64,000 nucleotides of DNA from Candidatus Stammera capleta. Its GTDB lineage: Bacteria > Pseudomonadota > Gammaproteobacteria > Enterobacterales > Enterobacteriaceae. Position numbers and translations under genes: made by a program. Below are positions 6,294 through 55,711 of this stretch, in pieces. The number at the start of each line of letters is the position of its first letter. Position 1 is the first letter of the stretch. The stretch covers positions 36,030 to 100,029 of the forward strand of contig CP144799.1 of the NCBI GenBank assembly GCA_036689345.1, read 5' to 3'. Under the pieces are notes generated by a model that saw nothing but the letters and a program-made list of their open reading frames with translations, ran no database searches and had not been told where the DNA came from.

Positions 6294-6609
6294 ATATATT
6301 TATTATATAACAATAAATAATTAATAAAAAATATTTTTTTATTATTTAATTGAATAAACTAATGTTAAATTTTATCTAAGTATTGATCTTGATTAATAAA
6401 ATGTAGTAATATATGGTATTTGCTGTATTTATTTATTAATTTAATTTAAAATTTATTCAATAATATTTATATCATAAATAATATATATTTTAAAGTATTA
6501 ATTAATTTAATTTTATTTAAAATTAAAAATTTAAATTTAATATCATTATATTTATTTTTTGTTTTATAATTTTGTAAGTTTTATTAAAATACTATTTTAG
6601 GTAAATTAA

Positions 6610-40102: not shown

Positions 40103-42028
<1,926 letters not shown>

Positions 42029-53451: not shown

Positions 53452-53826
53452 TAAAATTTTCAATCGCTACTATTTATTTGTAGAGGAAAGTCCGGACTCC
53501 TAGGATAGGATGCCAGGTAATTCCTGGAAAAATTTTATTTTATGAAAAGTGCAACAGAAAATAACCGCTTTATTATTTTAAAGTAAGGGTGAAAAAGTAT
53601 GGTAAAAGCATACTATATCTTTTAGTAATATTAGATATGTGTAAACTCCATCTGGAGAAAGGTTAAATTAAGATATTATAATATTTATAAATATTTTTTA
53701 GTGTTTATAAAACAATATATTTATCCATATATATATATTAATATCATGGTGAACCGATAGAGTTATTAAGTGATTAATAATCTAGATAAATGATTGTTTA
53801 AACAGAATCCGGCTTAATTGATTTTA
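53452..53826 (+). ncRNA. rnpB: RNase P RNA (bacterial type A, AT-rich and reduced)
   Basis: Conserved blocks GAGGAAAGTCCGGACTCC, GATGCCAGGTAATTCCTGG, AGTGCAACAGAAA, GTAAGGGTGAAA, GTAAACTCCATCTGGAG and ACAGAATCCGGCTTA occur in the order and spacing of E. coli rnpB. The ends are approximate. Confidence 0.9.
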
Positions 53827-53855
53827 TTTTTTTTTATTTTTTTATATTTATAATT

Positions 53856-53888
53856 AAAATATTCCTGTTTTTTAAATAGGAATATTTT
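53856..53888. terminator. 11-bp inverted repeat hairpin (possible bidirectional terminator)
   Basis: AAAATATTCCT (53856-53866) and AGGAATATTTT (53878-53888) are perfect complements around an 11-nt loop. The hairpin lies about 30 nt after rnpB and about 37 nt after the stop of the minus-strand ORF 53925-54269. The flanking T-run is weak. Confidence 0.35.
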
Positions 53889-53924
53889 AAAATATTTTTA
53901 TATAATAAATATTATTTATTTATT

Positions 53925-54269
53925 TTATTTTTTTTTTAAAATTATTTTTTTTTTTATAAAATATAAATAATTAATACTTATTAATAATAAAATAATATAA
54001 AATATTGTATAAATATATATTTCAGTACAATTATTTTGTATATTAGTTTTTATTATTATTAATTTAAGAAAATTATTTATAATTTGAATCAAAAATCATG
54101 TTATTAAATTTAAAATTATAAATATAGATATTATTTTTTGAAAAATTTTTTTTATTTTTGTTTTTATTTTATTTTTTTTTTTAATTGAGAAATTTAATAT
54201 TTTATAAATGATATACTTATAGGTATTAATAATTATTTTTTTTATTATATATTTATAGAAATTATTCAT
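53925..54269 (-). CDS. hypothetical small protein (114 aa, Lys-rich N-terminus, two hydrophobic segments)
   Basis: Minus strand, ATG at 54269. Checked codon by codon: open for 114 codons with one TGA (54096-54098) read as Trp; stop TAA at 53925-53927. Not in the track because the TGA splits it. No homologue recognised. Confidence 0.4.
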
Positions 54270-54328
54270 TTTATGTTTTAAACTTTTTTTTAAAATTAAT
54301 TATAGATATTATACAATATATATTTTTT

Positions 54329-55711
54329 ATGTTAAAAATTTTCAATACATTAGTTAATAGAAAAGAATTATTTAAATCAATAAATACTAAATTAGTAAAT
54401 ATGTATGTATGTGGTGTTACTGTTTCTAATTATTGTCATATAGGGCATGGACGTACTTTTTATTTTTTTGATACCTTATTAAGGTATTTAATACATTTAG
54501 GATATAAATGTAATTATGTTCGTAATATAACAGATATAGATAATAAATTAATTAATAAATCTTTAAATGAAAATATTTCTATTAAAAAAATATCTTATAA
54601 TATGATTTTAAATATGTGAAAAGATTTTAATAATTTAGGTTTATTAATTCCTAATTTTGAACCTAAAATTACTGATAATATAGAATTAATTATTTATGAA
54701 ATTAAAAAATTAATTAAAGATAATTTTGCATATATTTCAAATAATGGAGATATATGTTTTTCAGTAAAAAAAAAAAATAATTATGGTAAATATTTTTCTA
54801 ATAGAAAAATATTTAAACATAAAAATGATTTTGTTTTATGAAAATTAAATAAAAATATAAATTTTAAAGGATGAGATTCTCCTTGAGGTAATGGAATACC
54901 AGGATGACATATTGGTTGTTCAGTAATAAGTAATAAATATTTAAATAATAATATTGATATTCATGGAGGAGGACTAGATTTAATATTTCCTCATCATGAG
55001 AATGATTTAGTTCAATCTAAATGTTTATATAAAAAAAAATATTTTTCTAATTATTGAATTCATACTGGTATTATGTTAAATATTAATGGAAAAAAATTAT
55101 CTAAATCTAAAAAAAATATTTTTTTATTAAAAAATCTACTAAATATATATCATCCAGATATAATAAAATTTTTTTTTTCTTCTAAGCATTATAGAAAAAA
55201 TATGTATTTTGATATAACAGAATTAGAAAAAAATAAAGTATGTATTAATAAATTATATTTATGTTTAAGTAATTTAAATTTAAATATAACTTTAAATAAA
55301 AAAGATATTTTAGATTTTCAGGAATTTGATGATTTATTTTATAAATATATGAATAATGATATAAATTTACCTAAAGTTCAAACATTAATTTTTTATATGA
55401 TGCATGAAGTTAATAAAATTAAATTTAATAATTATTTGTTAGCTAATAAATTAGCATTTAAAATGAAATATTTTGCTAATATTATTGGTATATTGAATAG
55501 TAATGTTGATAATTTTTTAAAACAATCAAAAAATAGAAAAATTAATTTTAAAATTATTAAAAGAATTAATAGATTAGTTGAGATAAGAAATATTGCTCGT
55601 AAAAAAAAAAAATGGAGAATAGCTGATTCTTTACGTGAAGAATTATTTAAATTAAATGTTTCTGTTAATGATAGAGAAAATTTTTTGTCAGAATGATATT
55701 TTTTAAATTAA
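54329..55711 (+). CDS. cysS: cysteine--tRNA ligase
   Basis: ATG at 54329. [19 protein letters not shown] (HIGH), [29 protein letters not shown] and KLSKS (KMSKS). Track ORFs 54329-54619 and 55073-55696 are in frame. Read through TGA at 55694 to TAA at 55709-55711. Confidence 0.95.

Follow-up and report, generated by a model that had tools for sequence, protein, structure and literature searches.

YqjE and YqjK of Escherichia coli are products of the RpoS-dependent yqjCDEK operon and are co-expressed with YqjD, a ribosome-associated, tail-anchored protein (PMC10746276). Overexpression of YqjE stops growth (PMC10746276; PMC11302039), and across bacteria, genes resembling yqjE and yqjK show synteny with those of the DUF883 family (bioRxiv 10.1101/2024.08.16.608256). 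No molecular function has been assigned to YqjE even in E. coli (PMC10746276; bioRxiv 10.1101/2024.08.16.608256), and we found no solved structure of it. The sole published physiological hint for a YqjE-like member comes from Pseudomonas, in which the PA3040-42 block has been tied to envelope stress (PMC11302039).

Here we describe a small gene between rnpB and cysS in a window of 64,000 nucleotides, the whole stretch of DNA that was analysed, from Candidatus Stammera capleta. This bacterium is an extracellular pectinolytic symbiont of tortoise leaf beetles. Its assembly amounts to 327 kb (a 312-kb chromosome and two small contigs) with 17% G+C. One of the small contigs, of 9071 bp, matches plasmid CP144804.1 of Ca. 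Stammera capleta at 99.5% identity. UGA is known to encode Trp in Ca. Stammera capleta, and a basal lineage of five Stammera genomes still uses code 11 (PMC13695967); because the reassignment was already published for the organism, reading TGA as Trp is justified independently of the ORF discussed below. The gene is under moderate purifying selection and, judging by profile comparisons and gene order, is very probably orthologous to yqjE, an enterobacterial gene for an inner-membrane protein (PF07332/DUF1469).

The reading frame and its surroundings

An earlier note on this DNA, made from its letters alone, had pointed to a hidden orphan ORF in the largest apparently non-coding gap of the window. 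Translation confirmed the coordinates, the internal TGA, the TAA and the quoted 114-aa product: the minus-strand frame of 114 codons (window 53925-54269) begins with an ATG at 54269-54267 and ends with a TAA at 53927-53925, and its only in-frame TGA, at 54098-54096, is codon 58 and becomes Trp58 under code 4. Under code 11 this codon leaves two pieces, one of 57 and one of 56 codons, both shorter than 60 aa, which is the fragmentation that had been proposed. From stop to stop, the code 4 frame spans 53925..54299 and contains 124 sense codons; since the upstream stop occupies 54300-54302, the frame is open from 54299 and not, as first given, from 54300. The length of the gap also needed correction, from 502 bp to 498 nt (6.4% G+C), because Rfam puts rnpB at 53452-53830 and the cysS ATG is at 54329. 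With that ATG, the divergence from cysS across a 59-bp spacer holds. A rough ranking, scored against ORFs of at least 100 codons and tRNAs only, agrees that this is the largest gap in the window, the next uncovered stretch being ~316 nt long (6294-6609).

The description of the ORF as hidden does not hold, because the exact protein had already been called as a gene with TGA=W in public assemblies. Public protein collections contain it from the NCBI assembly and from the Logan assembly of SRR23946967, in which the 114-aa gene is called between cysS and der and has no Pfam hit. The assembly of a second strain encodes a 114-aa variant with one residue different. The ORF is a real code-4 gene, present in public gene calls. 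Coordinates of the locus are collected in the table.

Table. Features of the rnpB-cysS region, in window coordinates
Feature	Position	Strand	Basis
yqjE-like CDS, 114 codons + TAA	53925..54269	-	translation, collinear ORFs, dN/dS, profile link, hydropathy, AlphaFold2
in-frame TGA = Trp58 (code 4)	54096..54098	-	same column in G059, G020 and G011; low dN/dS downstream; published code
59-nt divergent spacer, yqjE-like ATG to cysS ATG	54270..54328	.	start agrees with the aligned ATG of relatives
candidate sigma-70-like promoter, TTAACA-16 nt-TATAAT, 11/12 matches	54308..54335	-	best site of the region in a consensus scan
perfect 13-bp inverted repeat, arms 53854-53866 and 53878-53890, 11-nt loop	53854..53890	.	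between convergent rnpB and yqjE-like gene
non-coding tail after stop, 94 nt	53831..53924	-	place of extra coding parts in relatives
rnpB (RNase P RNA, class A), convergent neighbour	53452..53830	+	Rfam RF00010, 159.5 bits, E 6e-51

Among the candidate signals, the promoter-like site (54308-54335) lies ~39 nt upstream of the yqjE-like ATG and overlaps the cysS start codon. The scan that found it carries no weight, because 20 sigma-70-like sites in this A+T-rich region are barely above the 14.6 seen in shuffles. The inverted repeat at 53854-53890 folds at -14 kcal/mol (z = -3.3), and none of 200 shuffles was as good; compared with the closest relative (G059), the stem is identical and the loop has diverged. 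This hairpin is probably a shared or bidirectional transcript end for one or both of rnpB and the yqjE-like gene. The sequence after it on the plus strand is T-rich, so the hairpin may chiefly end the rnpB transcript. A consensus scan found no G+C-rich terminator in the region, and an Rfam search with E up to 1 found no RNA other than rnpB in the rnpB-cysS gap. DNA at the position of the 94-nt tail is coding in relatives: in basal genomes it specifies the C-terminal helix of YqjE together with yqjK, in others a further Lys-rich linker with a third hydrophobic segment. The family HMM alignment continues past the ORF stop, through three TAA stops, to window position 53877.

Conservation and selection across the genus

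rnpB and cysS are adjacent in 45/45 Stammera genomes. The gap between them is long (436-830 nt) in 21 of the 45, and each long gap contains a collinear minus-strand ORF of 109-174 codons (88 in G059). In the other 24 the gap is short (33-345 nt) and has no minus-strand frame of more than 52 codons; the longest frames listed for these gaps mostly extend into the cysS start. One test of the ORF that had been set beforehand was whether related genomes keep the frame open at this site; syntenic homologues were found in 20 other Stammera genomes, with E-values as low as 1e-20.

In a maximum-likelihood tree built from a fragment of the neighbouring gene der, genomes with the yqjE-like gene are spread over several well-supported clades, and at least 6-7 independent changes are required to account for the genomes without it. 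G002 and G060, which have the largest gaps of all, fall beyond the midpoint root. The yqjE-like gene was therefore present in the ancestor of the genus and has since been lost by deletion more than once.

Near the base of the der tree, five genomes (G002, G060, G003, G021 and G057) have their cysS match in a frame of 455-479 codons that lacks all three stop codons, which means that cysS has no TGA codon there; this fits the reported five code-11 basal genomes (PMC13695967). The TGA/Trp column of the yqjE-like gene is common to the window genome (G000), G059, G020 and G011. At locus L048 (genome G041, chromosome 271,175 bp), the yqjE-like frame has 109 codons and no ATG, beginning after the position of the MIIKNF... 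start of its closest relatives (G045, G051 and G054); it may have a non-ATG start or N-terminal damage.

The closest relative of the window genome is G059, whose cysS protein fragment is 93% identical. Between these two genomes, dN/dS was 0.24 in one part of the ORF and 0.33 in the other, close to the values in the flanking genes (0.23 for cysS, 0.32 for der). Pooling the two parts gave 11 synonymous and 17 non-synonymous changes, counts that are small, where ~5/28 synonymous changes would be expected (P = 0.006). Downstream of the TGA, dN/dS was 0.19 for this pair and 0.35 for G020-G011. Among other pairs within the genus, 13/15 had dN/dS of 0.29-0.60, most with a significant synonymous excess, and two were near 1 (G015/G022, 0.99; G044/G024, 0.83). 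The test that had been proposed, dN/dS below 1, thus returned values of 0.2-0.5, also downstream of the TGA. Together with the conserved frame, they support the earlier view of a genuine protein-coding gene that reads TGA as Trp and is divergent from cysS.

Relationship to YqjE and YqjK

Direct searches with the window protein gave little. It had no hit to PF07332 and no significant hit in Pfam and NCBIfam (only spurious sub-threshold matches to 7TM_GPCR_Srsx and E1-E2 ATPase), a word-indexed search among 5.8 billion proteins yielded nothing but the query itself, and a search for related loci with this one protein brought up no relative. Comparison of a six-sequence alignment with E. coli YqjE by hhalign also returned nothing. 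The link to YqjE became visible only when basal and derived Stammera sequences were split and a reference of 34 YqjE sequences from Enterobacteriaceae genomes was used for profile-profile comparison by hhalign.

The basal genomes G002 and G060 carry two overlapping minus-strand ORFs at the rnpB-cysS site (17-nt overlap in G002). The first matched PF07332 over nearly its full length (profile positions 10-115) at 19.7-21.9 bits (E 4e-5 to 9e-4), below the gathering score of 28.4 bits (E. coli YqjE scores 75.8 bits), and the second matched PF13997 (YqjK) at 14-21 bits (E 1.6e-4 to 0.016), also below the Pfam cut-off. These were the sole hits in G002 and G060, and they stand in the same order as in E. 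coli. BLASTP of the G002 proteins gave E 2e-5 against E. coli YqjE, with the match at the METRLRL...ELEE motif, and E 3e-4 against YqjK. In profile comparisons, basal Stammera aligned with enterobacterial YqjE over 120 columns (Prob 97.1, E 5.8e-11), and 19 derived Stammera sequences, window ORF included, aligned with the basal ones over 98 columns (Prob 94.6, E 7.2e-8, score 49.6). For YqjK, the basal and enterobacterial profiles aligned over 83 columns (Prob 76, E 2.3e-5). The direct comparison of derived Stammera with enterobacterial YqjE was insignificant (Prob 0.1, E 0.5, 34 columns). Thus, with no direct match in Pfam, NCBIfam or YqjE, family membership of the window protein rests on a two-step profile chain and on synteny.

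Composition is a concern for such a chain. The window protein uses 13 residue types (I 31%, K 19%, N 11%), as expected from the translation of A+T-rich DNA, and low complexity of this kind can inflate similarity, but the controls argue otherwise. When the derived alignment was reversed (1 control), column-shuffled (60) or block-shuffled (60), the best score was 25.4 compared with the real 49.6, so composition does not explain the match between derived and basal sequences.

Gene order supports the same assignment. In E. coli K-12, yqjE-yqjK on the plus strand (3,249,683-3,250,376; the two genes overlap by 11 nt) and rnpB on the minus strand (3,270,216-3,270,592) are convergent and 19.8 kb apart, separated by ~20 accessory genes (yqjF to yhaC, the tdc operon and others). 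In basal Stammera, rnpB (+) is convergent with, and directly adjoins, yqjK-yqjE (-), in the order and orientation of E. coli. The Stammera layout is what deletion of the ~20-kb E. coli interval would leave, and this synteny supports orthology. The Pfam name 'Phage_holin_3_6' might suggest a holin role, but the phage lysis context (endolysin or spanin neighbours) is missing: the gene is surrounded by rnpB, der and cysS, and phage genes are absent.

The derived gene has lost several parts of this ancestral arrangement. No yqjK (PF13997) lies downstream of the window gene, where the stop is followed by 94 nt of non-coding DNA. Searches for a DUF883 gene (yqjD/elaB/ygaM, PF05957) gave no match with E up to 10 in five Stammera genomes (G000, G002, G060, G020 and G005), although very degenerate copies are hard to detect. 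The conserved N-terminal motif (M/I)xETR(L/I)(R/K)L...E(L/T)xE(E/L)K, present in E. coli and basal Stammera, is degenerate in the window protein, and the C-terminal T(R/L)xEL..D helix, present in the same two groups, is missing by truncation.

What remains has the layout of a small membrane protein. A Lys-rich N-terminus and two hydrophobic stretches had been noticed in the sequence, and both are borne out by hydropathy (segments at ~46-72 and 82-105) and by the helices of a single-sequence AlphaFold2 model (2-75 and 81-113, with a break at 76-80, TNIQN). The model (pLDDT 87, pTM 0.40) is informative for secondary structure only. The N-terminal tail contains 13 K/R and the C-tail is Lys-rich, which under the positive-inside rule points to an N-in/C-in topology. 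The window protein shows the layout typical of YqjE proteins of ~130 aa: a cytoplasmic N-terminal helix followed by a two-TM hairpin. Its product is thus predicted to be a small inner-membrane hairpin, N-in/C-in, with a basic amphipathic cytoplasmic helix (1-45), TM1 (~46-72), a loop (76-80) and TM2 (~82-105). The gene would be transcribed divergently from cysS, with its transcript ending at the hairpin shared with rnpB. As YqjK is absent here, and YqjD/DUF883 is absent in the five Stammera genomes searched, the protein would act alone in the membrane. By analogy, its likeliest role would be a stabilising function of the envelope or membrane stress type, proposed only from what is reported for the yqjDEK / PA3040-42 block.

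Erosion of the locus and comparison with known systems

The series of relatives reads as an erosion of the locus, from two genes to a longer single ORF, a truncated ORF, a frameshift and a deletion. The longer single ORFs encode proteins of 147-168 aa in 8 genomes, including sister-clade G020, G011, G006, G058 and G052, and G005/G023 (loci L010-L012, L015-L017, L034 and L054 (G005/G023)). In these long forms the YqjE core is followed by a Lys-rich linker and a third hydrophobic segment. Judging by position only, they may be YqjE-YqjK fusions, an attractive idea given that complexes of YqjE and YqjK have been predicted (PMC10746276); the third segment had no significant similarity to YqjK, whether basal or enterobacterial (E 0.02 and 1). 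In the lineage of the window genome, the ETRxRL...ExEE motif, the C-terminal helix, yqjK and yqjD are lost. The orthologue in G059 (locus L018, G059:C1:88439-91756) has a +1 frameshift in an A14 run corresponding to window 54150-54170, which splits the gene into frames of ~36 and 88 codons, both open. This insertion may stem from a mistake in the assembly, or it may be a genuine frameshift, with or without bypass by polymerase slippage. In the next relative, G046, the gene is absent. Overall, the yqjE-like gene looks useful but dispensable and eroding in this lineage, its orthologue degenerate and truncated; dispensability follows from the deletions, of which at least 6 were independent.

Erosion of this kind raises the question of whether the window gene is itself dead, a recently inactivated yqjE remnant whose frame is open merely because the inactivation is recent. 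Its stops cut off a C-terminal part that sister clades keep, and the family motif is degenerate. The A14 frameshift of the closest relative, the 345-nt gap of G046 with no frame over 35 codons, the minimum of six losses in the genus (24/45 genomes without the gene) and the dN/dS of ~1 in G015/G022 all point the same way. Against this stand the dN/dS of 0.19-0.33 between G000 and G059, which includes the part downstream of the TGA, and the intact 114-codon frame in two strains of the species. After loss, moreover, the gap shrinks and long frames vanish, and since a TAA or TAG is expected roughly every 8 codons, a frame of 124 codons would not stay open for long once dead. Frameshifts in poly(A) runs of such symbionts can be bypassed by polymerase slippage. 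We therefore consider a remnant improbable, if still worth bearing in mind; the low dN/dS and the frame intact in two strains indicate that the gene here is most likely still functional.

Two further readings are far less probable than a remnant. The frame could have arisen by chance in A+T-rich spacer DNA that in reality has a non-coding function (for example a promoter, a terminator or an unrecognised RNA): the composition is extreme, the spacer carries a promoter-like site and a hairpin, and long antisense shadow frames are many in the window. The longest of those of at least 100 codons is a 301-codon minus-strand frame (40987-41892) antisense to a 641-codon plus-strand frame (40103-42028), and because such frames abound, the length of a frame by itself says little within genes of this DNA. 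Within the rnpB-cysS gap, however, 5000 mononucleotide and 5000 dinucleotide shuffles gave a longest open run on either strand of 46 codons on average (95th percentile 67-68), and 0/10000 reached 124 codons, in line with the earlier argument that so long an open stretch is unlikely by chance. In relatives, the ORF was longer than in all 1000 shuffles of its own gap in 20/21 long-gap genomes. Conservation in 21 genomes, the synonymous excess in many pairs and the Rfam result, with nothing but rnpB at E up to 1, leave a chance frame with very little probability. The other reading, a lineage-specific orphan without relatives outside this genome, which was the earlier description, had in its favour the lack of Pfam/NCBIfam hits and the search of 5.8 billion proteins that returned the query alone. 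It is refuted by the syntenic homologues in 20 other genomes: their collinear ORFs, the basal members that link the family to enterobacterial YqjE through the profile chain, and the conserved linkage to yqjK and rnpB leave it, too, hardly any probability.

If the window gene is yqjE, then a member of the E. coli 'y-ome' persists under purifying selection, and without its DUF883 partner, in one of the smallest known bacterial genomes. Such persistence suggests a role independent of YqjD-mediated ribosome silencing. A profile search of 160 other Enterobacteriaceae genera showed that most large genomes have yqjE, as do a few reduced ones (0.5-1.2 Mb); in most tiny symbiont genomes no copy was found, although detection in degenerate genomes is limited. 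Well-conserved copies (E 1e-31 to 1e-47) occur in reduced genomes of 0.5 Mb (G232), 0.8 Mb (G188), 0.9 Mb (G263), 1.1 Mb (G137) and 1.2 Mb (G233). Other small genomes of 0.4-1.2 Mb that were listed individually had no yqjE match, so that retention among symbionts is patchy. From these searches, retention of yqjE in a 0.3-Mb genome without yqjD is noteworthy but not unprecedented. We tentatively propose that YqjE is fitness-relevant in the inner membrane without YqjD (ribosome silencing) or YqjK, and that Stammera retains a minimal working core, a reading we regard as possible though somewhat short of probable. If it is true, the core would comprise ~105 residues of 13 amino-acid types, a cytoplasmic helix followed by a two-TM hairpin, which some species would fuse to a third TM segment, maybe the remainder of YqjK. 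The biological interest is modest, but a minimal YqjE core would be defined for experiments. For annotation, the gain is that an unnamed hypothetical small ORF of Stammera can be named as a yqjE orthologue, and its basal neighbour as yqjK.

Among described systems, the closest counterpart is E. coli K-12 YqjE (b3099), of the yqjC-yqjD-yqjE-yqjK stationary-phase operon. The window protein and YqjE fall in the same size class (114 vs 134 aa), and the hydrophobic segments of YqjE (45-78 and 80-105, with a short loop between) match the positions in the window protein. Both neighbourhoods are convergent with rnpB, yqjK lies downstream and overlaps as in basal Stammera, and profile homology is transitive. 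The window protein differs from E. coli YqjE in showing no direct significant match to it, in having a Lys/Asn-rich stretch where E. coli has the ETRLRLAVVELEEEK motif, in lacking the cytoplasmic helix TRxEL..D at the C-terminus, and in having one codon that is TGA=Trp. The window genome also has no yqjC, yqjD or yqjK partner, and the promoter context differs, being divergent from cysS. In Pseudomonas aeruginosa, the operon PA3040-PA3041-PA3042 encodes a YqjD-like protein, a YqjE-like protein and a small protein, PA3041 being the YqjE-like member of the same conserved DUF883-linked block (PMC11302039). The phenotypes reported there need the whole operon or PA3042; Stammera, in contrast, keeps the YqjE-like gene alone. 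Nearest of all are the basal Stammera YqjE-YqjK pairs (G002 and G060), which retain the ETRIKLL..E.QE motif, the C-terminal helix (TLxEL.KDK) and a separate overlapping yqjK, all three of which the window gene lacks, yet occupy the same site and strand and match the clade of the window protein at E 7e-8 over 98 columns.
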